Below the pieces are notes generated by a model that was not told the origin of the DNA, searched no databases, and worked only from the letters and a program-made list of their open reading frames with translations. A stretch of 64,000 nt of DNA. Origin: Fibrobacteria bacterium. Its GTDB lineage: Bacteria; Fibrobacterota; Fibrobacteria; UBA11236; JADFYW01. Position 1 is the first letter of the stretch. Each line of letters opens with the position of its first letter. A program made the translations under genes and the position numbers. The DNA is taken from positions 21,488-85,487 of the forward strand of contig JADFYW010000004.1 of assembly GCA_015232855.1 (NCBI GenBank). The letters are read 5' to 3'. Below, in pieces: positions 776 through 20,948 of the stretch.

Positions 776-3250
776 TTATAAAAGGCCCAGAGCCTTATCA
801 AGCAGGAGAGACAGACTGAAAGGTTTAGGGATACTATCAGTCAGGCTATTTTTAAAATCAGGACAGCTATAATTTTCTATTTCCTGGTTAGTCAAAAATA
901 GAGTCGAGGGACAGGGGAATATTATTTCTTGCAATTTGTGGCAAAAATCAGGACCAATATTTTCTGATATCTCACAATCAACAATAATAAGTTTCAAAAG
1001 ATCTTTTTTTGATTTTCCTATATATTCTAAGGCGGCCCTTATTGTTTGCTCTGTCACCACATTGTAACCACGGATTTCAAATGCGGAATAGAGCATGTCG
1101 GTGATGTTATTATCGTTATTTAACAGTAAAACGGTTTCCTTTTTAAAATTCCCTTCCTGCAAATTTGCTGTTTTGTCCGCACTAAAAATTCGGCCTCGTC
1201 CACTCTCCTTTGCCGCATACAAGGCAATATCTGCCATAGTAACCAGTCCATCCATGGTGGAATCATCTGTGGGATATGATGAAACACCTCCACTGAAGCT
1301 TATCTCTACATCCGGATGCCCAGGTACTTCGATATTGTTTCTGATGTATTCCATTAACGATGCCAGTACAAATTTCGCGCGAACAGCAGGCAGGCCTTCA
1401 AATAAAACAAGAAATTCTTCACCACCCCAACGAAAGGATATATCCGATTGTCTGAATGAACTCCTTAGGGTTTGCCCGAATTGAATAAGGACACTATCAC
1501 CAGCGTTATGGCCAAACCGATCATTAATTGATTTAAATAAATCCAGATCAAGAATCGCAAGGGTAAGGTTTTTTCGTTCTCTGTGACAACGGGAAAAAGA
1601 AACCTCAAATAATTCATTAAACGACCGACGATTGTAAAGACCTGTTAGAGAGTCATGTTTTACATAAAAGTGTAGCTGCTTTTGTTTTTTTATTTCATTG
1701 CTTATTTTTGCCCTGATAAGTTCATTGGATATTGGCTTTACCAGAAAATCATCGGCTCCTTTTAAGTATGTGGTTTCAATAACATCTGGATTGTTTTCAA
1801 AGGTGATTACAATCAGGGGAATATCCTTATAACGGTAATCTGTTTTGATACTTTCAAGTAATACCATACCAGAAAATCCAGGCAGGTGTAAATCAAGCAG
1901 TACCAGATCGGGAACAAAATTTTCAAGTTCTTCCATAAGGTTATTGCCATTATAGAGATGTTGTATGTCAGCGGGAATTCCTTTTAACATTTCCTTCAGA
2001 AGTCCGCCCAAACTCCGGTCACCGTCTACTAAAATTATTTGAAATTTTTTTTTGTCTTCATTGTCCAGAGCGATTTTAAGGTCTTCCACCACTTTATTAA
2101 ATGAAAAAGGTTTTTCTATAAAAAGGTCTATCCCGTAACGGACCGCTTCAATGCGGTTTTCCATACTACGGTCAGACGAGGTAAGTGCCATCATCGTATG
2201 ATTTTCCAGAGCATGGCTGTTGCGGAATAACTTGATTAATTCAAACCCGGTTACGGAACTATCAGGGAAATTTTTATCAACTATCATGATATCAGGTTTT
2301 GTATCCGGGTTACTTACCAGGTTAACAGCTGTTTCAATATTAGATTCGCATCTTATAGTAATGCCGGCCTTTTCTCCGACTTCGGATAGATTATTGATGA
2401 GCGTGGAATCATCATCAATAATTAAAACCTGGTAGTTCTGGGTTCCCCAATCTTTTTGGCTTTGTGTGGTGGTAATACCTGGTTCTCTGTCTTTAGATAA
2501 TGTGGTATTGACATGTTCTTCATCGGAATCGATCTGAAAAGCATTTTTTATCTTGAGATAATAGCCCGTCAATGAATCCAGCCATGGTTGGGGTATTAAT
2601 TTCCCTGATTCCGAAAATAGTTTTAATCTACTCTCTAATTCTCTGGCTATCCGGCTGACATCATGGAATCCATAAGAGCCTGCACTTCCCGCAAGCAAGT
2701 GAATGTCGTCTTTTAGGGAGCGTATCGTATCGGGATTAGGGGTCGACTGGAGTCGGGTGATGAGTTTTTCAAGTTTACTGAGCTTATTGTATAACGTTTT
2801 AACATACTCTTTGCGCAGATCATTGAGAAATGGGGTATCTTGAATTTCAGATGCTTTTATTTGTGATGTTGTTCTTGAAATATTAGTAAAGAAATTTTTC
2901 AAATCTTGATTATCAAGAGGCTTATTGAGAATGTAATCTATTTTATGGGTTTCTTTTAAAAGGTTATAAGACTTTGCATCGGAATACCCCGAAGAAATAA
3001 ATGCAGTTATCGGTTTGATTGGTAACCGCTCCAGTATCCATTGTGATAGATCTATACCTGAGCCATCTGGCAGGTAACCATCTAGGATTACAACATCATA
3101 ATTTCTTTCCCGTAGTAACTGTTTGGCCTGGACAACCCTGTGTACTATTTCAAGGTCGATAGAGAATTCACCGGAAAGTTTTTTAAAAATGAAACAGAAA
3201 TCGGTGTCATCATCAACCATCAAAACGTTTATCTTATTCGGTTTATTCAT
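776..3250 (-). CDS. Multidomain response regulator / diguanylate cyclase: REC - Hpt - REC - REC - GGDEF - C-terminal REC-like
   Basis: N-terminal VLMVDDD receiver; Hpt-like HLLAGSAGSYGF; further receivers (VLIIDDD, ILVDGD); GGDEF domain with RWGGEEF active-site motif and upstream HDSLTGLYNRR. Confidence 0.8.
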   Translation of the reverse strand: MNKPNKINVLMVDDDTDFCFIFKKLSGEFSIDLEIVHRVVQAKQLLRERNYDVVILDGYLPDGSGIDLSQWILERLPIKPITAFISSGYSDAKSYNLLKETHKIDYILNKPLDNQDLKNFFTNISRTTSQIKASEIQDTPFLNDLRKEYVKTLYNKLSKLEKLITRLQSTPNPDTIRSLKDDIHLLAGSAGSYGFHDVSRIARELESRLKLFSESGKLIPQPWLDSLTGYYLKIKNAFQIDSDEEHVNTTLSKDREPGITTTQSQKDWGTQNYQVLIIDDDSTLINNLSEVGEKAGITIRCESNIETAVNLVSNPDTKPDIMIVDKNFPDSSVTGFELIKLFRNSHALENHTMMALTSSDRSMENRIEAVRYGIDLFIEKPFSFNKVVEDLKIALDNEDKKKFQIILVDGDRSLGGLLKEMLKGIPADIQHLYNGNNLMEELENFVPDLVLLDLHLPGFSGMVLLESIKTDYRYKDIPLIVITFENNPDVIETTYLKGADDFLVKPISNELIRAKISNEIKKQKQLHFYVKHDSLTGLYNRRSFNELFEVSFSRCHRERKNLTLAILDLDLFKSINDRFGHNAGDSVLIQFGQTLRSSFRQSDISFRWGGEEFLVLFEGLPAVRAKFVLASLMEYIRNNIEVPGHPDVEISFSGGVSSYPTDDSTMDGLVTMADIALYAAKESGRGRIFSADKTANLQEGNFKKETVLLLNNDNNITDMLYSAFEIRGYNVVTEQTIRAALEYIGKSKKDLLKLIIVDCEISENIGPDFCHKLQEIIFPCPSTLFLTNQEIENYSCPDFKNSLTDSIPKPFSLSLLLDKALGLL

Positions 3251-3645: not shown

Positions 3646-4188
3646 TTATAGATATCCCAATGAAAGTTCACCAATAATTAGCAAAACGGAAAGCAACATA
3701 CCAATAAGAAAAATCCGGTAACTGTATCCTAAATAACGGTATTTTTTATGTTGGAGAACCTGTCCCAACTGATAAATATCATTGAGAATAGTTTTGAAAA
3801 TAGTCTCATCTTTTTTGATTAAGGTCTCCATATGTTCGTAGTATTCCTCAAAACTTTGCCTGGAATAAAAAGAAAAGAATAACGGATTATAATGGGGAGT
3901 GTTTGGTTGAATATGTTTCTTTTTTGGAATGGAGGGCATGACTGCCATTAAAGCGCAGGCAGCAGCTGCCAGGGTGAAAATACTGAGAACCAGTAATCCG
4001 GCAGACACACCTGCTGATTGCATACGGCTGATCGCAACAGTTAAAACCAGGAATGCTGCACCCATGAGAATATTTGCTTTTTGGTCCGCCATTATACTCA
4101 ACTGAACATGATGCTGGTGGGTAGAACGTAACATATGTACGACATTCAGGCGTCCATGGAAACTCACTGGTGGGATATCTTCATTCAT
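3646..4188 (-). CDS. Two-TM membrane protein of unknown function (possible SLATT/Pycsar-type 2TM effector-like N-domain)
   Basis: Conserved-looking ADQKANIL segment followed by two hydrophobic helices, plus a C-terminal TM; 180 aa; no recognisable enzymatic motif. Confidence 0.3.
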   Translation of the reverse strand: MNEDIPPVSFHGRLNVVHMLRSTHQHHVQLSIMADQKANILMGAAFLVLTVAISRMQSAGVSAGLLVLSIFTLAAAACALMAVMPSIPKKKHIQPNTPHYNPLFFSFYSRQSFEEYYEHMETLIKKDETIFKTILNDIYQLGQVLQHKKYRYLGYSYRIFLIGMLLSVLLIIGELSLGYL

Positions 4189-4512
4189 AAAATATGGCTT
4201 TTTTTCACTATTTTAAGTTAAAATTGATGATTAATAATATACCAAGACAAACAGGATGTAAAGTTAATAATCAACTAATTAAGAATAAAAAGTATAACTT
4301 TAAGCCGTTATTTTTCAAAGTTATCTACAGCTTTGTTGAGTTGCCCAGACATTTCAGTCTGATTGGTTGTGTGTAGATTTTCCTGATTAATTGCCTTAGT
4401 TATTTCACTGCTTCTTTTTCATAATTTAAAGTTAGGCGCAACTAAAAAAAAGTTGTAATAAATTCGTAATTCCATCGACAAATAGGGAAATCAATAAGAG
4501 GATTATGGGATA

Positions 4513-5376
4513 ATGACGCAAAAATGGAAGATAGGAGTTGGGCTGAGGGTTCCTCATTATGGGGAAATCTTCTCTGAATGGCCAGATGTTGATTTCTTTG
4601 AGATTATCTCCGAGAATTACCTTTCCCTTTCCGGCACCCCCAAAAAGAACCTGGATAAAGCTCTTAGTAAATATCCATTGGTGATGCATGGGGTCTCCAT
4701 GAACCTTGGGTCTACGGATGAGCTTGATACCCGTTATCTGGATAAGATAAAAAAACTGGCAAGTTATACGGGGGCTCCTTATCTCACTGACCATTTATGC
4801 TGGACCGGGGTAGATGGCGTTAATTATCATGATTTACTACCTATGCCCTATACAAGGAAAAACGCTGTTCATTTTGCTGAGAAAATTAAACAGGTCCAGG
4901 ATTATATCAATATACCTTTTGGTATAGAAAACCTTTCAAGTTATGCCACATTCAGCTCTTCTGAAATGACCGAATGGGAATTCTTTAATTTAGTTGTGGA
5001 ATTGTCGGGATGCTCCTATATGCTGGATATTAACAATGTTTATGTATCCTCTGTTAATGCCGGTTTTTCTCCTGAAGAGTATCTCAAATCAATTAAATGG
5101 GAAAAGGTATTGCAGTGTCATATTGCAGGACACTCCAAACAGGACGATGGTTCATTAATAGATACCCATGATAACCCCGTATGTGATGAAGTCTGGCAGC
5201 TTTATCAAAAGGCGTGGGAAATGAGTGGCGGTTTTCATACTCTGCTTGAGTGGGATGCCAATTTCATGAGTTTTAAAGATACCCACGCAGAAGCACAAAA
5301 AGCAAGATTGTACCAGCCGGAAGTTCAACACTCTTTTGTTCCGGACTCTTTTAAATCCCGGGAGGTTTTAATATGA
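4513..5376 (+). CDS. DUF692 / MNIO family (multinuclear non-heme iron oxidative enzyme; MbnB/TglH/BufB-like) RiPP-modifying enzyme
   Basis: Hallmark N-terminus KIGVGLRVPHYGEIFSEWPDVDFFEIISENY; TIM-barrel (xylose-isomerase-like) length 287 aa; stop overlaps next start (ATGA). Confidence 0.8.
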   Translation: MTQKWKIGVGLRVPHYGEIFSEWPDVDFFEIISENYLSLSGTPKKNLDKALSKYPLVMHGVSMNLGSTDELDTRYLDKIKKLASYTGAPYLTDHLCWTGVDGVNYHDLLPMPYTRKNAVHFAEKIKQVQDYINIPFGIENLSSYATFSSSEMTEWEFFNLVVELSGCSYMLDINNVYVSSVNAGFSPEEYLKSIKWEKVLQCHIAGHSKQDDGSLIDTHDNPVCDEVWQLYQKAWEMSGGFHTLLEWDANFMSFKDTHAEAQKARLYQPEVQHSFVPDSFKSREVLI

Positions 5377-6203
5377 GTCAGGAAAAATTACATCGTTTTC
5401 AGAATATGTTTGGGAATACTCTGAGCACTCCCTTTAGTTTTTTGACAGGAGAAGCAACCTGTCAGACTGAATTATATGACGAGGATATTAAAACAGAAGT
5501 ACAGATGACCCCATTTAAAAATGCGGTACAATCATTAACCGTCTATAATCAACAATATTGGTATCGCCTGTTCAAAATAGTCCAGGACAGTTTTCCGCTA
5601 TTAAATAAATTGATAGGTCCGTGGCAGTTAAATCAGTTAACCACATCCTATGTAAAGGCTCATCCATCTTCTTCTCCGGTTTTAGATACCCTGGGGGCAG
5701 AGTTGCCCGAATATATTCAAATGGGAAGTTGGACAGAAGGCCTTTACCCAGATGCAGCCTATACTAAACGGGACCTAAAGCTGCTGTACCAGGCAGCAGA
5801 ACTTGAAAATATTTATAATGAACTTTTATACCTCGCCAATGTGAATGAAATGTCCGACAGCGTAGTTTCGGGTAACCCGAGGATTAAGCCCCAGGTAAAA
5901 CTCTATGCAGAAAACTGGCCGCTTCTTTCACTGAGAAACGAATTGGACCAGGTGAAAGAAGGTATTAAAGATATTGAATATAAACAATCACATTGGGCAA
6001 TTTGTAAACAGAACAATAATATTGGTTTTTACCATCTTGCCACAACGGCTTATAAACTCATGAAAGAAATAATCCGTTTCGGTGGATTAAACGAGGGTAT
6101 CGAACATATAGAATCTGTTCTCAGCGTATCAGAACTCAAAGAAGCTGAAGTTCATCTGGAACAGTGGTGTTATCAGTGGGGTAAACGGGGATGGTTCTAT
6201 TAG
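5373..6203 (+). CDS. DUF2063-family partner protein of MNIO enzymes (MbnC/TglI/BufC-like)
   Basis: Translationally coupled to the DUF692 gene; LTVYNQQYWYRLFKIVQDSFPLLNKLIGPWQLNQL matches the DUF2063 YxNxYxxRL...FP core. Confidence 0.65.
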   Translation: MSQEKLHRFQNMFGNTLSTPFSFLTGEATCQTELYDEDIKTEVQMTPFKNAVQSLTVYNQQYWYRLFKIVQDSFPLLNKLIGPWQLNQLTTSYVKAHPSSSPVLDTLGAELPEYIQMGSWTEGLYPDAAYTKRDLKLLYQAAELENIYNELLYLANVNEMSDSVVSGNPRIKPQVKLYAENWPLLSLRNELDQVKEGIKDIEYKQSHWAICKQNNNIGFYHLATTAYKLMKEIIRFGGLNEGIEHIESVLSVSELKEAEVHLEQWCYQWGKRGWFY

Positions 6204-6233
6204 AATTTTTTCAACAAAAACAAAGGAGAAACC

Positions 6234-6554
6234 ATGGTAGTAAAAAAAAGTAAACTCAGAAATCTTGCAATTGCAGGGATAATAGCCGGTTCAACTTCAC
6301 TTGGGGGGTGTTTCACCGACAGTGATTCGGATTCTAAAACCGAGGACACCAATAACATGAATCAGGCTGCTCTTACCACAGAAGCAGATTTTAAAGCCGA
6401 TTGCGAAGCAAAGGGCGGTATGCTGGAAAGTATTGCAAGCTGTAATGGTCATGCAACCTGTGCGGGGCAATCATTTTTTAACGGAGAGGTAAAAGTACAT
6501 GACTGCGCGGGTAAAAATGATTGTGCAGGACTTAACTGTAAAATCAGCTCATAA
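6234..6554 (+). CDS. Cys-rich DUF2282-like precursor peptide (bufferin BufA-like) with lipoprotein-type signal peptide
   Basis: 106 aa; signal peptide ending in lipobox LGGC; C-terminal half carries HATCAGQS and DCAGKNDCAG motifs reminiscent of DUF2282 (KAGxNDCA...HSCAGQ); 6 Cys after the lipobox; sits directly after the MNIO/DUF2063 pair. Confidence 0.6.
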   Translation: MVVKKSKLRNLAIAGIIAGSTSLGGCFTDSDSDSKTEDTNNMNQAALTTEADFKADCEAKGGMLESIASCNGHATCAGQSFFNGEVKVHDCAGKNDCAGLNCKISS

Positions 6555-6649
6555 TTGATTTTTCCATATCTTGAGAATACAAAAGGCTAAGCGCTGCCTG
6601 CTATCGCGGGCAGCTTCTTAGAACACATAAAATAAAATTGAAGTGAAAA

Positions 6650-7552
6650 ATGGACCATCTTAAAAAAATATTCTTATACGTTACTGTTGTATTGTTTGTC
6701 TGGCCAGGGTTAGCTGCAGCAGAACGGAAAGGTAAGATCAACTGGTTATATGTGTCAGCTGGGACCTTGCTTGACCGTTGGCAGGGGAAAACACTGACAA
6801 GCTGGGAAAGCAGAGTGGGGCGACCATATCCTCCGGCTAATACACCGCCTCAGAACTTTTATGGAATCAACATTGGCGCTATGTGGCAATGGCACTTTAA
6901 TCTCAAGACCGGCGTACATCTTAATTTGTTTTACAATCGCATTGGAACTTATGAAGCCTATCAAAGTGGTTATATTGTTACGCTTGAAGACGGGGTGGCG
7001 GGTATGGGTGACATATGGATTCAGAACGTTTTTAATTTGAAATTGATCCCAGGTGAAGGAGAGGTTAACTTTTATATCCCTGGTATATATCAAAAGAGTA
7101 ATACAAACATTTCTCCACAGGGGACGACGGTTGATCCGTGGACAGGTCTGGGAGCATACCATCTGGGGATTGCCTACCAATTAAATTTCCCCAAGTTTTA
7201 TGGGTATATATATGGCAAGTGGGCACTGCCCTCTGGAAGGCGTTCTCAGGTTGAAGTCGGGGACCAGGATATTGGCGCCAGGGTCGAACTAAAACATCAA
7301 TTCGGTACTTTGTATCAATTTAAGGCAGGGCTCCTTAGTGAATATCGTAGTTATCATTGGAAGCAGTTAACAGGAGATTTACGAAGAGACTTTTCGGTGA
7401 GTCCCGTTTTGGTAATTGGGCACCCGGTTAAATCTAATTCTGAAATATCATTGTCTATGGGTTTCTCCGCTTTCAGTTGGATAGATGATAGTTTGCTAGA
7501 TAAGCCGTTAGGGAAGGTCTTTTTCGGAATTTACTATGGGATATATCTTTAG
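6650..7552 (+). CDS. Secreted hypothetical protein, possible outer-membrane beta-barrel
   Basis: N-terminal signal peptide (LFVWPGLAAA); Gly/aromatic-rich alternating strands; C-terminus ...FFGIYYGIYL. Confidence 0.35.
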   Translation: MDHLKKIFLYVTVVLFVWPGLAAAERKGKINWLYVSAGTLLDRWQGKTLTSWESRVGRPYPPANTPPQNFYGINIGAMWQWHFNLKTGVHLNLFYNRIGTYEAYQSGYIVTLEDGVAGMGDIWIQNVFNLKLIPGEGEVNFYIPGIYQKSNTNISPQGTTVDPWTGLGAYHLGIAYQLNFPKFYGYIYGKWALPSGRRSQVEVGDQDIGARVELKHQFGTLYQFKAGLLSEYRSYHWKQLTGDLRRDFSVSPVLVIGHPVKSNSEISLSMGFSAFSWIDDSLLDKPLGKVFFGIYYGIYL

Positions 7553-8961: not shown

Positions 8962-10635
8962 ATGTGGAACGGTAAACAAACAGCTTTTATACTCGTTATC
9001 TTTCTAATGGCAGGGCATGGTTTATGTGGTAAGATAATCTATCCCTGGCGGGCAACTACAGCAATTGTAAAAGCAGGAGAGAGCTTTACTGTATTTTTTG
9101 ATGCAGAAAGTGGTGAATCAATAGATTCTGTGGTTCTTGTTGGACCTTATAATCGTATTACTCAATCTTCTCTAAATATTGAAACAGGAGACTTTGTATA
9201 TGATGCGTTAACCAGTGCAGCGTATAATACACAGATAACGGTTCCTGTTGAGGCTTCTGCTCCATCAGAATTATATACCCTGATTTTATACACTACCAAA
9301 GGTGAACAATTTTCAAAAAGTGCGGTTAAGGTTGTTAAAGCTTATAAAACCAGCTATACCATAATGCATATGTCTGATACTCATATCAGCAGGCATAAAA
9401 AAAACGGATATGCTCAGGAGCTTGAATGGTTCACCAATTTAGTTGATATAGCTAATATTATAGGGCCTGACTTAGTGTTTATCACCGGTGATTGCAGTAA
9501 TGAACTTACTGAAAATGGCGATTTTTCCGCAGAGGAGCGATGGGATTTTGTTTATAATGGACATGAAAATTTACAGGGCTTTCATGGTATTCATTCACCG
9601 GTATTTACACTCCCCGGTAATCACGACTACTATAAAACCAGTAATGGAGCAGCCTACTGGAATACCCATAACGGAATAAGGATGCACCATTTTACTTTTG
9701 GAGAGAGTAGATACATGGTGCTTGATAACTCACAAGGCGATGATCTTGCTGCACAATTAAGTCATCATCAATCCTGGTTGGATAGTGTTGGCCCTGGCAG
9801 TTTTCGTGGAATGGCAGAACATAAAACAGACCGGGTCGATCATGATTTTCTGGATAACAATAATGTACAACTTATTATGGAAGGACATACCCATTTAGTC
9901 TGGCAAATGCCTGATCAAAGTAGTACGGGTTTCCGGGGAACAACTCCCACACTCTATTCAATACCCGGGAGTGCCAGTAATATTACTTCTGCTACTGGTC
10001 GTGATAATATCGGATGGTTTCGTTTGCTTTATGTAAATGGTGCTTCTGTTGATACGATTACACGATTACAGTATGCCGATAACACTGAAGAAGACCCATC
10101 ACAACATAACGTAAAATTGAGAATTGAATATAGTGGAGATGGTGAAGGCAATCAAACGGGGAACCAGGCTTCAATTATAAATGAATTTGATCAGGAATTC
10201 CCAAATTGTCTGGTACGGTTTGTGTTGCCCAAAGGAAATTATGATGTGTCAGCAGGCACCATCGAACAAGTCATTCAAAATGATACCGTAACTGTTTTAG
10301 ATGTAAGAATGGACATACAAGCAAATAGTACGGTTCAATGTTCAGTTTCGGTGTCTGATGTTCAATCTGTTTCTGATCAGAGTGGTGTACCTGAATCATT
10401 TACCCTGTTTAGTTTTAAAGGGGAAATCGTCTCAATACCTGGTTCGGTGGGGGCCCGGGAACCGGTGAGTATTTTTGATATTAATGGAACGCTTATAAAG
10501 CGTATTAAAAAATCAGGGGAGTATCTTACCTGGGATCTTACCAACAAGTATAACAACCAGGTGCAGGAAGGCCTTTATGTTATTATGCCATTTAAGAAAA
10601 AGCTGTATGTAACTGCAGACGATGTTGTGTTTTAA
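8962..10635 (+). CDS. Secreted calcineurin-like metallophosphoesterase with T9SS-like C-terminal sorting domain
   Basis: Signal peptide; motifs HMSDTHIS, ITGDCSNE, LPGNHDYY, EGHTH (metallophosphoesterase signature blocks); C-terminal beta-rich domain ending ...GLYVIMPFKKKLYV. Confidence 0.65.
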   Translation: MWNGKQTAFILVIFLMAGHGLCGKIIYPWRATTAIVKAGESFTVFFDAESGESIDSVVLVGPYNRITQSSLNIETGDFVYDALTSAAYNTQITVPVEASAPSELYTLILYTTKGEQFSKSAVKVVKAYKTSYTIMHMSDTHISRHKKNGYAQELEWFTNLVDIANIIGPDLVFITGDCSNELTENGDFSAEERWDFVYNGHENLQGFHGIHSPVFTLPGNHDYYKTSNGAAYWNTHNGIRMHHFTFGESRYMVLDNSQGDDLAAQLSHHQSWLDSVGPGSFRGMAEHKTDRVDHDFLDNNNVQLIMEGHTHLVWQMPDQSSTGFRGTTPTLYSIPGSASNITSATGRDNIGWFRLLYVNGASVDTITRLQYADNTEEDPSQHNVKLRIEYSGDGEGNQTGNQASIINEFDQEFPNCLVRFVLPKGNYDVSAGTIEQVIQNDTVTVLDVRMDIQANSTVQCSVSVSDVQSVSDQSGVPESFTLFSFKGEIVSIPGSVGAREPVSIFDINGTLIKRIKKSGEYLTWDLTNKYNNQVQEGLYVIMPFKKKLYVTADDVVF

Positions 10636-12417: not shown

Positions 12418-13749
12418 ATGATCAGAGTACTTGTTTTAACAATAATGCTTTTGCCTGTTTCAATGCTGGCATTAGAATATACCTTTCCGGGAACAACCTG
12501 GGAAACAGCAACTCCTGAAGAAGTTGGGCTTGATGCAGGGGCCGTCAATACAGCTGCTTCTCAGCTAGGCGGGCATGGGGCTATTATTCGTTACGGATAT
12601 GTAGTTAAAGTATGGGGTAGTAGCGGTTTAGCTGCTTCTACTGATTGGGCTTCATCATGTAAACCTATTTTCTCATTGATGATCTGGAAGGCTATTCATG
12701 ACGGTAAAGTAGAAAGCTTTCAGACTCTGGTAAAAGACATTATGACCGACCAAACCTTTAATGAAAAAGATTCAAAAATTCAACTGTACCATCTTGCTCA
12801 TATGACATCAGGGTGGGGCAGGGCGGAGGACCCCGGTGATGCTTTTTCGTATAACGACTGGGCTATTAATCTTTATGGTAAGGCTGTGTACCATTATATT
12901 TTTAAAGAATCCGGGACGACGCCATCTGAAATTATGCAGAGCGAACTTTCTATGCTTCAGTTTGAACATGATCCCGGCTTACATGAAACCAAAGTTGGTC
13001 GTTGGGCTGATGTTTCTGTTGGCGATGCTGGTCGCATGGCTCATTTGTTTTTGAATGATGGTAACTGGAATGGAACACAGGTGATAAATAAAGGAGAAAT
13101 TTATAATATGTTAGGTCAGGTTGTTCCCGCTGATTTGCCCATAACCAAAGCTGAAGGTGATATGAGTTTTAATTCCGGAACTCTGGGTGGCCGGAGTACG
13201 TATCAAAACGATGGTAATATGGGGCCGGGAAGTTATTCCTTTAACTTTTGGTTAAATGCGAACAAAAAATTATGGCCGGATCTTGATACCAATGTATTTC
13301 AGGGTAATGGGCATTTTGGAAGGGAAAATTATACCATTTTCCCCAATGAACAGCTCATCGTCATTCATTATGGTAATACGTTCAGTAACTCACAAATGAA
13401 TTCCAGATACAAACCTCTTCTCGAAGGAGTAACGAGTAATCCTATTGAACCCATAAATGAAATTGGGCCGGCACCGGTTAATATTCAAGAGACGCAAGCA
13501 GCCAAAAATAAGACCATTAATATATATTCAACCTCCCAAAAGTCAGGGCTTGTTCTTGGTCTGCCTGTGTTCTCTGGTATTGGAAAACTGAGAATCGTTA
13601 ATACCCAGGGGTTAACTCTTGTACAGGAACGTGTACATTCCGGGGATAAATTCAACTGGGATACCAAACAAATAAAACCAGGTGTGTATTTTGCAGAACT
13701 GAATGCAGAAGGACTAAAGGTTCGTCGAAAACTTACTTTGACTCATTAA
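12418..13749 (+). CDS. Secreted serine-hydrolase-like (beta-lactamase fold?) protein with T9SS-like C-terminal domain
   Basis: Signal peptide; possible SxxK motif (SSCK) near residue 78; C-terminal tail KPGVYFAELNAEGLKVRRKLTLTH strongly resembles the T9SS CTD consensus. Confidence 0.4.
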   Translation: MIRVLVLTIMLLPVSMLALEYTFPGTTWETATPEEVGLDAGAVNTAASQLGGHGAIIRYGYVVKVWGSSGLAASTDWASSCKPIFSLMIWKAIHDGKVESFQTLVKDIMTDQTFNEKDSKIQLYHLAHMTSGWGRAEDPGDAFSYNDWAINLYGKAVYHYIFKESGTTPSEIMQSELSMLQFEHDPGLHETKVGRWADVSVGDAGRMAHLFLNDGNWNGTQVINKGEIYNMLGQVVPADLPITKAEGDMSFNSGTLGGRSTYQNDGNMGPGSYSFNFWLNANKKLWPDLDTNVFQGNGHFGRENYTIFPNEQLIVIHYGNTFSNSQMNSRYKPLLEGVTSNPIEPINEIGPAPVNIQETQAAKNKTINIYSTSQKSGLVLGLPVFSGIGKLRIVNTQGLTLVQERVHSGDKFNWDTKQIKPGVYFAELNAEGLKVRRKLTLTH

Positions 13750-16874: not shown

Positions 16875-19800
16875 ATGATCAATATTTCCATTACCCTCGA
16901 TGGCCAGAAACTATCAATTGAGAATAATCAAACCATTCTTGATGTATGCCGTCAAAACGGGAAAGAAATTCCAGCTTTCTGTGATAGCGACCAATTAGAA
17001 CCTATAGGTACTTGCCGGATATGTGTTGTAGAAGCTGTTGGAGAGGGACTGATAACATCCTGCAACACTAAGGTTCGTGATGGCATGATCATTTTAACAG
17101 ATAGTGAAAAAGTTATTGAATCCCGTAAAAAAACGCTGGAAACGCTTTTATCCCGGCATTATGCTGATTGTACGGCTCCTTGCCAGGATGCTTGCCCAGC
17201 CGGTATCGATATTCAGGGTTATCTTGCCCTCATTCGCAGGGGATCCTTTGCCGAGGCTGTTCAGCTTATCAAAGAACGCTTGCCATTACCGGGCATTATA
17301 GGACGCGTTTGCCCCCGTCCCTGTGAATCCGCGTGTCGTCGTACTCTGGTAGACGAACCTATTGCTATTTGTCAGCTCAAACGCTTTGTAGCTGATTCTG
17401 AATTATTAAACCAAGGTATACCAACACCTGACTCTGTTACTTCCAGCGGAAAAAAGGTAGCCATTATTGGTTCGGGCCCGGCAGGGCTTTCTGCTGCCTA
17501 TTATCTTAGGCGTAATGGGCATGATGTAACCATTTACGAGTCGCTTCCAAAACCCGGTGGAATGCTTAGATACGGTATTCCTGATTATCGCCTTCCACCC
17601 GATATTCTGGATAAAGAAATTAATGCCATAACTGACATGGGGGTAGAGCTCATTACCGGAAAATCTTTGGGTAGTGACTTCAGTGTTGAGTCATTGAAGA
17701 AAGATGGCTTTAATGCTGTGTTCCTGGCAATAGGGGCCCATAACAGTTATAAGCTTAAATTAGAGGGCGAAGAGTCAGAGGGCGTGTTTCCCGGAACAGA
17801 TTTTTTGCGTCAGTTCACCATGGGTGAATCCATTGAAATTGGTGATAAGGTTGCCGTATTGGGAGGTGGCAATACCGCTATTGACGCTGCACGTACCGCG
17901 CTTCGCATGGGAGCAGCGGAGGTTACCATTGTTTATCGTCGTACCCGTGCAGAGATGCCCGCCAGCAGCTGGGAAATTGATGAGGCTGAGGAAGAAGGCG
18001 TTAAACTGCATTTTCTCACAGGCCCGATCCGGATTGTTACTGAAGAAGGGCGGGCAACTGGTATCGAATGCATTAAAATGGAATTGGGACAAGCTGATAA
18101 AAGTGGTCGCCCACGTCCACAGCCCGTTGAGGGCTCCGAATTCATTATTCCTGTTACCGCTGTCATTCCAGCTATTGGTCAGGGGCCGGATATATCTCCG
18201 GTTAAGGATACAGAACTGCAATTTTCCAGATGGGGAACCATTGATGCTGATGAACATTCTCAGGTCACTAATATTGAAGGTGTTTTTTCTGGTGGTGATT
18301 GTCAGACCGGCGCTGCAACCGCAGTAGAAGCTATTGCTGCTGGTAGACGTGCAGCTAACGGTATTCATGCTTATCTTAAAGGAAAAACACTGGTCCCAGA
18401 AAAGGTGTACAACGCTTCAAAGGGAAAGCTAAATGAACTTGAAGGCAGAGAAGAATTTGCTCAAATAGAAAAAAAATCCAGGCTTGCAATGCCTTTGAAC
18501 CATCCAAAATCACTCAAAAATAATTTTGAAGAATTAGAAAAGGGTTTTGCTGAGGCGGGAGCTATAGAGGAAGCTGGCCGTTGTCTGGAATGTGGTTGTA
18601 AGGCTAACTATTATTGTGATTTACGTCGGTGGTCTGCAGAATATGGTATGACTACCCAACCTGAACCGGTTGATGTAAATTCATATCCCAGGCTTAATCC
18701 TCACCCCTTTATTGAAGCTGACAGGAACAAGTGCATCTCCTGTACTCTTTGCCAAAGAATGTGTCATGACGTAGAAGGTATAGGTGTACTTGGTATTGAT
18801 TACCGGATTGATCCTTTACCTTTTGAACAGCCACTAGGCTCAACAGCATGTGAATCCTGTGGGCAATGTGTTGGGAGTTGCCCAGTGGGGGCTCTGGTTG
18901 TCAAAAACGGCCTTAAGCCAGAAAGGGAAGTAAAAACGACCTGTACATTCTGTGGTTGTGGTTGCGGTATTTACCTTGGAGTGCGCGGCAATGAAGTTGT
19001 GTATGTAAGAGGGGATGAAGAAAACCCCGTAAACAAAGGAAATTTATGCGTAAAGGGGCGTTTTGGAAATGATTTTATAAATCACCCTGATCGTCTTACG
19101 ACTCCGCTTATTCGGGAGAACGGGAAACTTCGTGAAGCATCCTGGAAAGAAGCAATGACACTCATTGCCGAAAAGCTTCCCCAGTTTAAGGGTGAAGCCT
19201 TCGTGGGTTTCTCTTCTGCTCGATGTACAAACGAAGATAACTACATCTTCCAAAAATTTGTCCGCAAGGTAATGGGAACAAACAATATTGATCACTGTGC
19301 CAGGCTCTGTCATGCTCCGTCAGTGGCCGGTCTTGCGCAAAGTTTGGGAAGTGGTGCTATGACCAATTCCATGGGCGAGATAGGGAAGGCCTCTACGATT
19401 TTTGCTATTGGTACCAATACCACATCTGCTCATCCTATTATTGGCCTTGAAGTGAAAAAAGCAGTGAAAAATGGAGCAGTGCTTATTGTAGCGAATCCCA
19501 AGCGGATTGATTTATGTCGTTTTGCCGATGTATTTCTGCAGCATAAACCAGGCACTGATGTCGCACTGGTTATGGGGATGGCTAATGCTGTTATTGAAGC
19601 GGGACTTGCTGATGAATCATTTATAAAGGACCGTACAGAAAATTATGCGGCTTTTATGGAATCTCTTAAGGCTTTTACTCCCGAGTTTGTAGAAAAAACT
19701 ACGGGCGTTCCCTGGACACTGATACAAAAAGCAGCAAAAATATATGCATCCAGTAAACCATCTTCCATTTTGTACTCAATGGGAATTACCCAGCATACTC

Positions 19801-20948
19801 ACGGTACTGATAATGTACTGGCGGTCAGTAATCTGGCTTTACTTACAGGGAACATTGGTCTGCCCTCTACCGGAGTTAATCCGTTAAGAGGACAAAATAA
19901 CGTTCAGGGCGCCTGTGATATGGGGGCACTCCCGAACGTTTACCCAGGGTATCAGAAAGTAGATGCTGAAGACGCTCAAAAGAAATTTGAAGCCGCCTGG
20001 GGAAGTAAGCTAAGCGGTAGTGCCGGACTAACCCATTTGGAAGTGCTGGAAGGGATTGATAACGGAACGGTTAAAGCTTTGTATCTTATGGGCGAAAACC
20101 CAATCATTAGTGAAGCTAACTCGAACCATGTGAGTGAATCCCTTGGAAAACTGGAGTTTTTTATTGCCCAGGATATTTTCCTTACCGATACCGCCAAAAT
20201 GGCTGATGTGGTATTACCTGCAGCCTCCTTTGCCGAAAAGGACGGAACATTCACCAATACCGAACGTAGAGTCCAGAGAGTTCGCAAAGCGATTAAACCG
20301 GTTGGCGAATCCTGGTCTGACTGGGCTATTACCTGTGAAATGGCTAAATCCATGGGAGAGAATGGATTTGATTTTGAAAGTGCAGAAGAGGTGATGAAAG
20401 AGATTGCTTCACTTACTCCCAGTTATGGTGGCATAACATATGAACGCATTGATGAAGTGGGACTTCACTGGCCTTGCCCTGATGCCAAACATCCGGGTAC
20501 ACCAATCCTTCATTCTCAACAGTTCCCGAGACCGGAAGGAAAGGGAAAATTCCTGCCATTGGAATATCGCTCGCCTGATGAAAATGCCTGTAACGATTTT
20601 CCTCTGGTATTAACTACAGACCGCAGTCTGTATCAGTATCACACCTCTACCATGACTGGACGGGTTGAGGGACTTATGGAAATCGATGGCAAAGAACGGG
20701 TAAATATCCATCCAGATGATGCAGCCAAACTTGGTATAACAGATGCCTCTTCGGTGGAAGTCTCCTCACGTCGCGGTGTTGTGAAGGCGTATGCGAAGGT
20801 GACTGATGTTGTACCCGTTGGTGTAGTATCCATGACCTTCCATTATCCGGAAAGCCCGACCAATGTGTTGACAAACGCAGCCATGGACCCGGTAGCTAAA
20901 ATCCCTGAAACCAAGGTTTGTGCAGTAAGCATTAAAAAACTGGGATAA
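16875..20948 (+). CDS. Fused oxidoreductase: 2Fe-2S ferredoxin + GltD-like FAD/NAD(P)H subunit + 2x[4Fe-4S] + molybdopterin formate dehydrogenase alpha (Cys-type)
   Basis: N-terminus like NuoG/FdhA 2Fe-2S (CDSDQLEPIGTCRICVV); GltD/DPD-type Fe-S region (CTAPCQDACPAGIDIQGY...CPRPCESACRR); two Rossmann GxGxxG sites (IIGSGPAGLSAAYYL, VLGGGNTAIDAART); ferredoxin CxxCxxCxxxCP pairs; MopB N-terminal CTFCGCGCG; FDH active-site stretch HCARLCHAPSVAGL aligned to E. coli FdhF ARVUHGPSVAGL with Cys replacing Sec (no in-frame TGA). Confidence 0.85.
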   Translation: MINISITLDGQKLSIENNQTILDVCRQNGKEIPAFCDSDQLEPIGTCRICVVEAVGEGLITSCNTKVRDGMIILTDSEKVIESRKKTLETLLSRHYADCTAPCQDACPAGIDIQGYLALIRRGSFAEAVQLIKERLPLPGIIGRVCPRPCESACRRTLVDEPIAICQLKRFVADSELLNQGIPTPDSVTSSGKKVAIIGSGPAGLSAAYYLRRNGHDVTIYESLPKPGGMLRYGIPDYRLPPDILDKEINAITDMGVELITGKSLGSDFSVESLKKDGFNAVFLAIGAHNSYKLKLEGEESEGVFPGTDFLRQFTMGESIEIGDKVAVLGGGNTAIDAARTALRMGAAEVTIVYRRTRAEMPASSWEIDEAEEEGVKLHFLTGPIRIVTEEGRATGIECIKMELGQADKSGRPRPQPVEGSEFIIPVTAVIPAIGQGPDISPVKDTELQFSRWGTIDADEHSQVTNIEGVFSGGDCQTGAATAVEAIAAGRRAANGIHAYLKGKTLVPEKVYNASKGKLNELEGREEFAQIEKKSRLAMPLNHPKSLKNNFEELEKGFAEAGAIEEAGRCLECGCKANYYCDLRRWSAEYGMTTQPEPVDVNSYPRLNPHPFIEADRNKCISCTLCQRMCHDVEGIGVLGIDYRIDPLPFEQPLGSTACESCGQCVGSCPVGALVVKNGLKPEREVKTTCTFCGCGCGIYLGVRGNEVVYVRGDEENPVNKGNLCVKGRFGNDFINHPDRLTTPLIRENGKLREASWKEAMTLIAEKLPQFKGEAFVGFSSARCTNEDNYIFQKFVRKVMGTNNIDHCARLCHAPSVAGLAQSLGSGAMTNSMGEIGKASTIFAIGTNTTSAHPIIGLEVKKAVKNGAVLIVANPKRIDLCRFADVFLQHKPGTDVALVMGMANAVIEAGLADESFIKDRTENYAAFMESLKAFTPEFVEKTTGVPWTLIQKAAKIYASSKPSSILYSMGITQHTHGTDNVLAVSNLALLTGNIGLPSTGVNPLRGQNNVQGACDMGALPNVYPGYQKVDAEDAQKKFEAAWGSKLSGSAGLTHLEVLEGIDNGTVKALYLMGENPIISEANSNHVSESLGKLEFFIAQDIFLTDTAKMADVVLPAASFAEKDGTFTNTERRVQRVRKAIKPVGESWSDWAITCEMAKSMGENGFDFESAEEVMKEIASLTPSYGGITYERIDEVGLHWPCPDAKHPGTPILHSQQFPRPEGKGKFLPLEYRSPDENACNDFPLVLTTDRSLYQYHTSTMTGRVEGLMEIDGKERVNIHPDDAAKLGITDASSVEVSSRRGVVKAYAKVTDVVPVGVVSMTFHYPESPTNVLTNAAMDPVAKIPETKVCAVSIKKLG

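Follow-up and report, generated by a model that had tools for sequence, protein, structure and literature searches.

Three adjacent genes on the plus strand of the DNA analysed here, a 64-kb stretch (the window in the following) from a metagenome-assembled genome (MAG) of the Fibrobacteria, probably form a bufferin/captophorin-type operon for a ribosomally synthesised, post-translationally modified peptide (RiPP). They stand in the order MNIO, DUF2063 partner, precursor, and the precursor is a prolipoprotein of a BufA2-related, apparently permuted family with six cysteines per domain. The identities of the genes, their order and its conservation, the overlap of the two enzyme genes, the lipobox, the membership of the precursor in a family, the association of this family with MNIOs and its remote homology to BufA2 were observed directly. 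GenBank labels the small open reading frame (ORF) and its downstream neighbour as hypothetical proteins. The elements of the cluster are:

4513..5376, plus strand: MNIO (DUF692) peptide-modifying enzyme, BufB-like (GenBank MBF0429981.1; PF05114, NCBIfam, PDB 3bww)
5373..6203, plus strand: DUF2063 partner, PME-type 1, BufC/HvfC-like (PF09836); its start overlaps the MNIO stop
6224..6228, plus strand: Shine-Dalgarno-like AGGAG, 5 nt ahead of the precursor ATG, read from the sequence
6234..6554, plus strand: precursor of 106 residues (MBF0429983.1), based on the ORF, the lipobox pattern, 68 relatives and the domain alignment
6360..6551, plus strand: six-Cys domain (core) of the precursor, based on 82 aligned copies from 69 proteins

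The first ORF (287 residues) encodes a full-length MNIO, which matches PF05114 over profile positions 2-261 of 263 with an E-value of 1.7e-96 (322.9 bits at a cut-off of 25). Among the NCBIfam models MNIO_BufB (NF050167) fits best (308.5 bits, cut-off 310) and HvfB second best (243.9 bits, cut-off 360), and the nearest solved structure is PDB 3bww (E 3.7e-42). Inspection by eye revealed VMHG, TDHL, IEN, LDINN, HIAGH, DTH, and LEWD, the iron-binding His/Asp/Glu motifs of MbnB-type enzymes. The residue after the catalytic Asp, corresponding to Phe250 of FonB and Asp251 of BufB2, is an Ala; because both Ala and Asp are found across the MNIO groups, this position is not informative on specificity. 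The second ORF (276 residues) matches PF09836 (E 8.4e-14, 52 bits at a cut-off of 27.2), and a sequence search of the PDB gave no relative of it. Its ATG overlaps the stop codon of the MNIO gene as ATGA at 5373-5376. The coupling of an MNIO gene to a DUF2063 partner, which had been proposed from the letters and their ORFs, is thus borne out by the overlap and by Pfam matches of both proteins over the cut-offs.

The third ORF encodes a protein consisting of a signal peptide (residues 1-25), the lipobox L-G-G-C26, an acidic and serine-rich linker (residues 27-42), and a six-Cys domain of 64 residues (43-106). There are seven cysteines in all, and those of the domain are C57, C70, C76, C91, C97, and C102. 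The N-terminus MVVKKSKLRNLAIAGIIAGSTSLGGC matches the PROSITE lipobox pattern PS51257 (L23-G-G-C26), with a basic n-region (K4, K5, K7), a hydrophobic core, and S-L-G-G-C26 following IIAGST, which places the cysteine within the range of 15-35 of the pattern. The start codon is backed by the ribosome binding site and by an N-terminus that is kept in the relatives P0002 and P0003. By its sequence pattern, the precursor carries a Sec-type export and lipoprotein signal. The original prediction had pointed out both the LGGC lipobox, which fits PS51257 from a start supported by AGGAG and the conserved N-terminus, and the motifs HATCAGQS and DCAGKNDCAG, which are indeed present in the C-terminal half at residues 73-80 and 90-99, respectively. 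It had also presented the lipobox as a contrast to the known bufferins; the lipobox is there but the contrast was overstated, since about 16% of the Buf2 precursors are predicted lipoproteins (PMC12452194) and DybA and NedA are lipidated (PMC13056109). The AlphaFold2 (AF2) model of the six-Cys domain consists of one helix and four strands (pLDDT 74).

The precursor belongs to a small family for which neither Pfam nor NCBIfam has a model. Word-index protein searches gave two and then seven matches, and the family emerged from an exhaustive hidden Markov model (HMM) search of 1.84 billion protein cluster representatives (threshold E<=1e-3). This search resulted in 68 relatives among the representatives, nine of them at E<=1e-10; the family as analysed comprises 69 proteins. 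The domain has about 60 residues and is present in one to three copies per protein (82 copies in the 69 proteins). Its consensus is F..xC.a.GG..e.ha.C.G.N.C.G.S....l.eH.C.G.N.C.G..C, in which the Cys and Gly residues are invariant or nearly so, and the cysteines are spaced as C-x12-C-x5-C-x14-16-C-x5-C-x4-C. According to the PS51257 pattern 52 of the 69 proteins have a lipobox, and several of the others resemble N-terminal fragments; a lipoprotein signal appears to be typical of the family and near-obligate. Eighteen members have a C-terminal CxxCH, and 14-15 of these match Pfam cytochrome c models. In such proteins (L006 4273-4965; P0013, P0029, P0030, P0035, P0036, and others) the six-Cys domain is joined to a c-type cytochrome on its C-terminal side, which hints at a connection of the metal-binding domain to redox processes. 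The nearest homologue of the window precursor is P0002 with 57% identity (loci L001/L002, contig CAZRWX010000167.1, 2199-2513). The MAG holding P0002 is labelled "uncultured Bifidobacteriales", a label that a G+C content of 44% and a Gram-negative-type lipoprotein cluster fit poorly. The contig might therefore be mis-binned.

A family member adjoins MNIO and DUF2063 genes in all 12 loci with sufficient flanking DNA. Because of this neighbourhood and the 68 significant relatives the small ORF is beyond chance, and the enzyme pair together with the MNIO association of the precursor family supports the prediction of a bufferin-type MNIO and DUF2063 RiPP cluster. Eight loci have the order precursor-MNIO-partner (A-B-C; L006, L082, L084, L085, L090, L091, L092, and L093), and four independent loci, namely the window, L001, L086, and L087, have the order MNIO-partner-precursor (B-C-A). 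The earlier observation that the precursor gene follows the enzymes instead of preceding them holds, with the same order in four independent loci. Neither the region upstream of the MNIO gene (4189-4512) nor the rest of the 64-kb window contains a precursor-like ORF. Buf2 precursors in the collected loci are located upstream in 57 of about 59 placements and downstream in one (L005). The B-C-A order is thus real, conserved, and rare. Scanning metagenomes with close members of the family brought up no further enzyme-first loci. The MNIOs associated with the family group as one clade in a rough neighbour-joining tree; this clade includes the window MNIO and is separate from the Buf2-linked MNIOs. 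The main survey, which looked for substrates solely among ORFs located ahead of an MNIO gene, called the bufABC order strictly conserved (PMC12452194), and it would have missed clusters in which the precursor comes last.

Some of the collected loci show further arrangements. L091 carries two precursor genes. In L090 (1082-2779) MNIO and DUF2063 are fused into a protein of 565 residues, whose gene directly follows that of the three-domain lipoprotein precursor P0004 with 18 domain cysteines. L005, a Planctomycetota locus, has Buf2-like lipoprotein ORFs with 12/13 cysteines both before the MNIO gene (4141-4920) and after the partner gene (6667-7065). In the about 59 placements no other Buf2-type precursor lies downstream, and L005 has kept the upstream copy as well.

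The six-Cys domain of the family is, as judged from profile comparisons, a remote relative of BufA2. On the BufA2 model NF050166 the window precursor reaches 6.8-11.6 bits at a cut-off of 60 and five itemised relatives reach 13-20 bits. Weak matches (E<=0.01) were obtained for 20 of the 69 members with a best E-value of 2.1e-5, and all 69 are below the cut-off. For profile-profile comparisons a BufA2 reference alignment was built from ORFs preceding related MNIO genes, of which three representative six-Cys ORFs (L032, L033) score 82-92 bits on NF050166. With hhalign, the 82-domain alignment of the family matches the BufA2 alignment with a probability of 95.3% (score 39, 37 columns), compared to 3.6% (score 14.9) for the reversed BufA2 alignment and at most 36% (score <=21) for 20 column shuffles. 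When the BufA2 alignment was duplicated in tandem, the match extended across the junction (96.5%, score 50, 51 columns), a gain of 14 columns and 11 score units over the single template. In this tandem alignment the N-terminal "F..xCExxGG" of the family pairs with the C-terminal "xxCExxGGK" of Buf2, and the family cysteines C2, C3, C4, and C5 pair with Cys I, II, IV, and V of Buf2. The N-terminal segment of the family compared to the C-terminal segment of Buf2 alone scores 21.1, while 30 shuffles reached at most 12.1. The simplest reading of these profiles, which derive from short and repetitive sequences, is that the family domain is apparently a Buf2-like domain in circularly permuted form. 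It would begin with the C-E-x-x-G-G segment that ends Buf2, and the C-x-G-x-N-x-C repeats would come after. Because both families have tandem-domain forms, a circular permutation is plausible.

It could also be that the family is merely a divergent subgroup of Buf2 (BUF_6/12Cys), which might even be caught by the HMM of specialists, and that the permutation is an artefact of repeated motifs. The weak BufA2 matches would fit, as would the number of cysteines per domain, the one to three tandem copies, and the lipoprotein signals, all of which are as in Buf2 (PMC12452194). In addition, the C-x-G-x-N-x-C motifs are repetitive and the alignment registers are therefore ambiguous. Still, we regard this explanation as unlikely. 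All members, the best of them with an E-value of 2e-5, are well under the NF050166 cut-off in contrast to the 82-92 bits of true BufA2 proteins, the cysteine spacing differs, and the MNIOs linked to the family form a separate clade. The tandem template also brings a gain in columns and score, and the match of the N-terminal to the C-terminal segment holds by itself against shuffled controls.

For the chemistry, the identity of the modified cysteines, the lipidation, the metal binding, and the role of the neighbouring gene X, which is described below, we infer a course of events from characterised systems. In bufferins, BufB and BufC convert the central cysteines into 5-thiooxazoles with a loss of 4 Da each; the outer cysteines pair in a disulfide, and copper is bound by the product (PMC11626156). 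The products of MNIO-PME1 pairs have been unified as thiooxazole metallophores (PMC13097082), and MNIO-modified peptides bearing a lipobox are lipidated via Lgt, LspA, and Lnt (PMC13056109). By analogy, the MNIO-partner complex would bind the precursor in the cytoplasm, where the signal peptide may lie within the recognition element, and would oxidise a subset of the six domain cysteines to 5-thiooxazoles (-4 Da each). Sec export, diacylglycerylation at Cys26 by Lgt, and cleavage by signal peptidase II would follow, and the remaining cysteines would form a disulfide. On the model of Buf2, C57 would take part in the disulfide and most of C70-C97 would be modified. Held on the periplasmic side of a membrane by its lipid, the domain could then sequester copper or a different soft metal. 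It is speculation that the precursor-last order may let the enzymes be made ahead of a substrate that would otherwise be exported by Sec in unmodified form.

The precursor might instead be an MNIO substrate with another chemistry, such as an oxazolone-thioamide or a different cysteine rearrangement, or it might have a redox, electron-transfer, or other-metal role at the membrane. MNIOs catalyse many reactions, and thiooxazole versus oxazolone-thioamide has been debated. Furthermore, the family includes cytochrome c fusions, the neighbours of relatives include thioredoxin, rhodanese, and an ArsR-type regulator (L091) and CutA1 (L093), and there are no copper genes near the cluster within the window. 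This alternative is nevertheless quite improbable, as the models that fit the enzyme best are those of BufB and HvfB, with the BufB equivalog cut-off almost reached. The nearest neighbouring MNIO clades are paired with BufA2, and the recent unification of MNIO-PME1 products as thiooxazole metallophores (PMC13097082) also argues for the bufferin chemistry.

Similarly, it is hard to see the lipoprotein as an accessory Cys-rich protein with disulfides or a bound metal that is not modified by the MNIO, the true substrate being encoded elsewhere or having been missed. Non-RiPP lipoproteins do occur within bufferin clusters (PMC13056109, clusters V-IX), the place after the partner gene is atypical, and a fusion to a cytochrome c domain, as in about 18 relatives, is odd for a peptide substrate. 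However, Buf1-cytochrome c fusions have been published as bufferin-domain-containing fusion proteins (PMC12452194), neither the cluster nor the rest of the window offers another candidate precursor, the same domain fills the canonical precursor slot directly ahead of the MNIO gene in eight relatives, and the precursor shares homology with BufA2, a family of proven substrates. We therefore consider an accessory role very unlikely.

The original prediction had assigned the small ORF to DUF2282 and described an extra C-terminal repeat beyond the core. Neither the protein nor its core has a Pfam match at E<=10 and none of the 69 relatives matches DUF2282 (E<=0.01), and because the ORF fails the DUF2282 HMM this part of the prediction is refuted on its own terms. 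The supposed repeat turned out to be the conserved last third of the domain of about 60 residues, seen in 82 copies. The DUF2282 logo has the motifs HSCAGQ and AGKNDCA, which HATCAGQS and AGKNDCA(G) of the precursor resemble, and the shared motifs presumably run in reverse order along the precursor compared to DUF2282. That the precursor is a DUF2282 (BufA1-type) protein with an acquired lipobox and an additional repeat can practically be dismissed, because, although the likeness of the short motifs is real and the enzyme pair is bufferin-type, no member matches DUF2282 whereas 20 of 69 weakly match BufA2, six cysteines per domain are conserved and not four as in DUF2282/BufA1, the closest MNIO relatives outside the family are paired with BufA2-type precursors, and the alleged repeat is kept in all 82 domain copies.

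Several points weigh against interpreting the region as a bufferin/captophorin-type operon with a permuted BufA2-related precursor. The window MNIO is 1.5 bits under the NCBIfam equivalog cut-off for BufB, the partner is far under the HvfC cut-off (26.8 versus 142 bits; E 4.3e-6, residues 50-272), and the precursor obtains only 7-12 bits on the BufA2 model. P0002, the closest homologue, has F-T-D-C where the canonical lipobox is expected. The AF2 model of the precursor domain is only moderate in confidence, and a Foldseek search of this model against the PDB matched no solved structure. There are no copper-homeostasis, DoxX, or sigma/anti-sigma genes near the cluster within the window, and the chemistry and the metal are assigned solely by analogy.

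Two further elements follow the precursor gene:

6587..6621, plus strand: stem-loop directly 3' of the precursor gene, with a 9-bp G+C-rich core stem (6593-6601/6606-6614) and without a full U tract
6650..7552, plus strand: gene X, a protein of 300 residues with a signal peptide (MBF0429984.1); homologues follow the precursor in relatives

The hairpin folds with -24.6 kcal/mol (z -2.83), and none of 200 shuffled sequences was equally stable. A simple terminator scan did not pick it up, and a promoter scan gave no more sites than in shuffled sequence. Strong hairpins, most of them with U tracts, are found at the matching site in L086, L087, L001, and L089. The hairpin is likely an operon terminator or a transcript-stabilising element, and it would accordingly close the operon or stabilise its 3' end. 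In L086 (34% identity, E 1e-48), L087, L088, and L089 the precursor is followed by homologues of X, and L001 is without X. In the four independent enzyme-first loci with X (window 6650-7552 on the plus strand, L086 6437-7312, L087 4662-5528, and L089 396-587) the protein has about 290-300 residues. No match to X was found in Pfam, PADLOC, or the PDB, a word search returned only X itself, a metagenome scan was empty, and an AF2 single-sequence model reached a pLDDT of 29 and is of no use. Given a signal peptide and an aromatic C-terminus (...GFY in orthologues), our guess is that X is an outer-membrane beta-barrel, and it may act together with the lipoprotein. L087 (2429-5528) and L086 (4327-7312) also share their flanks, with a divergent beta-carbonic anhydrase gene upstream, an HDOD-domain gene beyond it, and a conserved gene for about 311-315 residues convergent after X; this additional synteny is absent from the window. 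In the canonical-order loci L091 (4062-4901) and L092 (4124-4972) the precursor gene is directly preceded by one for a protein of about 280 residues, Y. Homology links the two copies of Y (E 1e-16), and the one from L091 ends in ...SKYF. A homology between X and Y was tested and rejected, with none being detectable.

In the window the cluster is surrounded by genes for a PycTM-like protein, a REC-GGDEF protein, X, and a metallophosphoesterase. The PycTM-like (Pycsar effector) transmembrane protein (3646-4188, minus strand; Pfam 2.6e-21, PADLOC 1e-14) has no pyrimidine cyclase beside it, and the gene that comes next on the strand (776-3250, minus) encodes an 824-residue protein combining a GGDEF diguanylate cyclase domain with four receiver domains and one Hpt domain. 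Other window genes, at 12418-13749, 8962-10635, and 16875-20948 (all plus strand), include those for a protein whose match to the C-terminal sorting domain of type IX secretion stays below the threshold (25.5 bits, cut-off 27), a calcineurin-like phosphoesterase of 557 residues, and a 1357-residue protein that unites ferredoxin, pyridine-nucleotide-disulfide oxidoreductase, and molybdopterin oxidoreductase domains. Neighbours in the relatives are ECF sigma factors (L082, L084), the ArsR-type regulator, thioredoxin, and rhodanese (L091), and CutA1 (L093).

The type of system has been published before, and so have lipoprotein signals on about 16% of the Buf2 precursors and bufferin-cytochrome c fusions (PMC12452194) as well as lipidated MNIO peptides (PMC13056109). 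Apparently new are the precursor family as a defined unit lacking an HMM, its near-obligate lipoprotein nature, the permuted relation to Buf2, and the conserved B-C-A(-X) arrangement. The GenBank accessions of the cluster were not found in the accessible part of the supplementary material of published surveys. Published work already leads one to expect the chemistry, the lipidation route, and the copper role, so that the conceptual gain is incremental. No other group of MNIO-modified peptides is as large as the bufferin-type systems, and the bufABC order rule has exceptions, so that surveys of ORFs preceding MNIO genes would miss substrates encoded after the partner gene. The apparently permuted family is a natural test of whether MNIO-partner recognition depends on local C-x-G-x-N-x-C motifs and the signal peptide or on the overall topology. 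In addition, the family alignment can be converted to an HMM, with which annotation pipelines could name such "hypothetical proteins". A bolder and so far doubtful proposal is that the family represents a third class of bufferins, a cousin of Buf2 that is obligately lipid-anchored and circularly permuted, has an MNIO clade to itself, and comes with one to three domains or a cytochrome c fusion. It would include a Fibrobacteria-like subclade with a rearranged operon, in which the enzymes are translated first and the lipoprotein is paired with a dedicated outer-membrane X. If this were true, X would bring the metal-binding domain to the outer membrane or the cell surface, or make use of it there.

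Among the known systems, Bufferin 2 (BufA2B2C2 of Caulobacter vibrioides; BUF_6/12Cys; NF050166/NF050167; PMC11626156) is related by detectable profile-profile homology. Both systems have an MNIO and a DUF2063 protein, an N-terminal export signal in place of a leader peptide, and a six-Cys domain of about 60 residues, in tandem in some members, with C-x-G-x-N-x-C and C-E/D-x-x-G-G motifs, and a subset of the Buf2 precursors are predicted lipoproteins as well. However, the window precursor reaches 7-12 bits at the BufA2 cut-off of 60, the order of the segments is apparently permuted in its family, Buf2 Cys III is missing, and there is a new last cysteine. A lipobox is the rule in the window family (52 of 69) but a minority trait in Buf2. 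The MNIOs of the window family have their own clade, the window order is B-C-A while Buf2 precursors are upstream in 57 of 59 placements, and the window has no DoxX gene. Bufferin 1 (BufA1/DUF2282; PF10048) has the same enzyme pair, an export signal, a small folded Cys-containing domain with AGKNDCA-type motifs, and cytochrome c fusions as in the window family (PMC12452194). BufA1 has four conserved cysteines, of which I and IV form a disulfide and II and III are modified (PMC11626156), in contrast to the six of the window precursor, which fails the DUF2282 HMM outright; in addition, the window has no sigma/anti-sigma genes.

The RiPP-lipoprotein hybrids DybA (with a ChrH-type MNIO) and NedA (a lipidated oxazolin; PMC13056109) are also MNIO-modified peptides with a signal peptidase II lipobox, and the proposed route of cytoplasmic modification and subsequent processing by Lgt, LspA, and Lnt is the same. 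They differ in the MNIO subfamily and in their core motifs, which are CPACGMG in DybA and EGKCG repeats in NedA, and their lipidation is experimental while that of the window precursor is predicted. The oxazolin, fontiphorin, and gonophorin ("captophorin") clusters HvfABC/FonABC (PMC11252979, PMC13097082) share the MNIO-PME1 pair, with HvfB as second-best model and 3bww as best PDB relative of the window MNIO. Their precursors, however, are EGKCG repeat proteins without a folded six-Cys domain, and the window MNIO scores 243.9 bits at the HvfB cut-off of 360.

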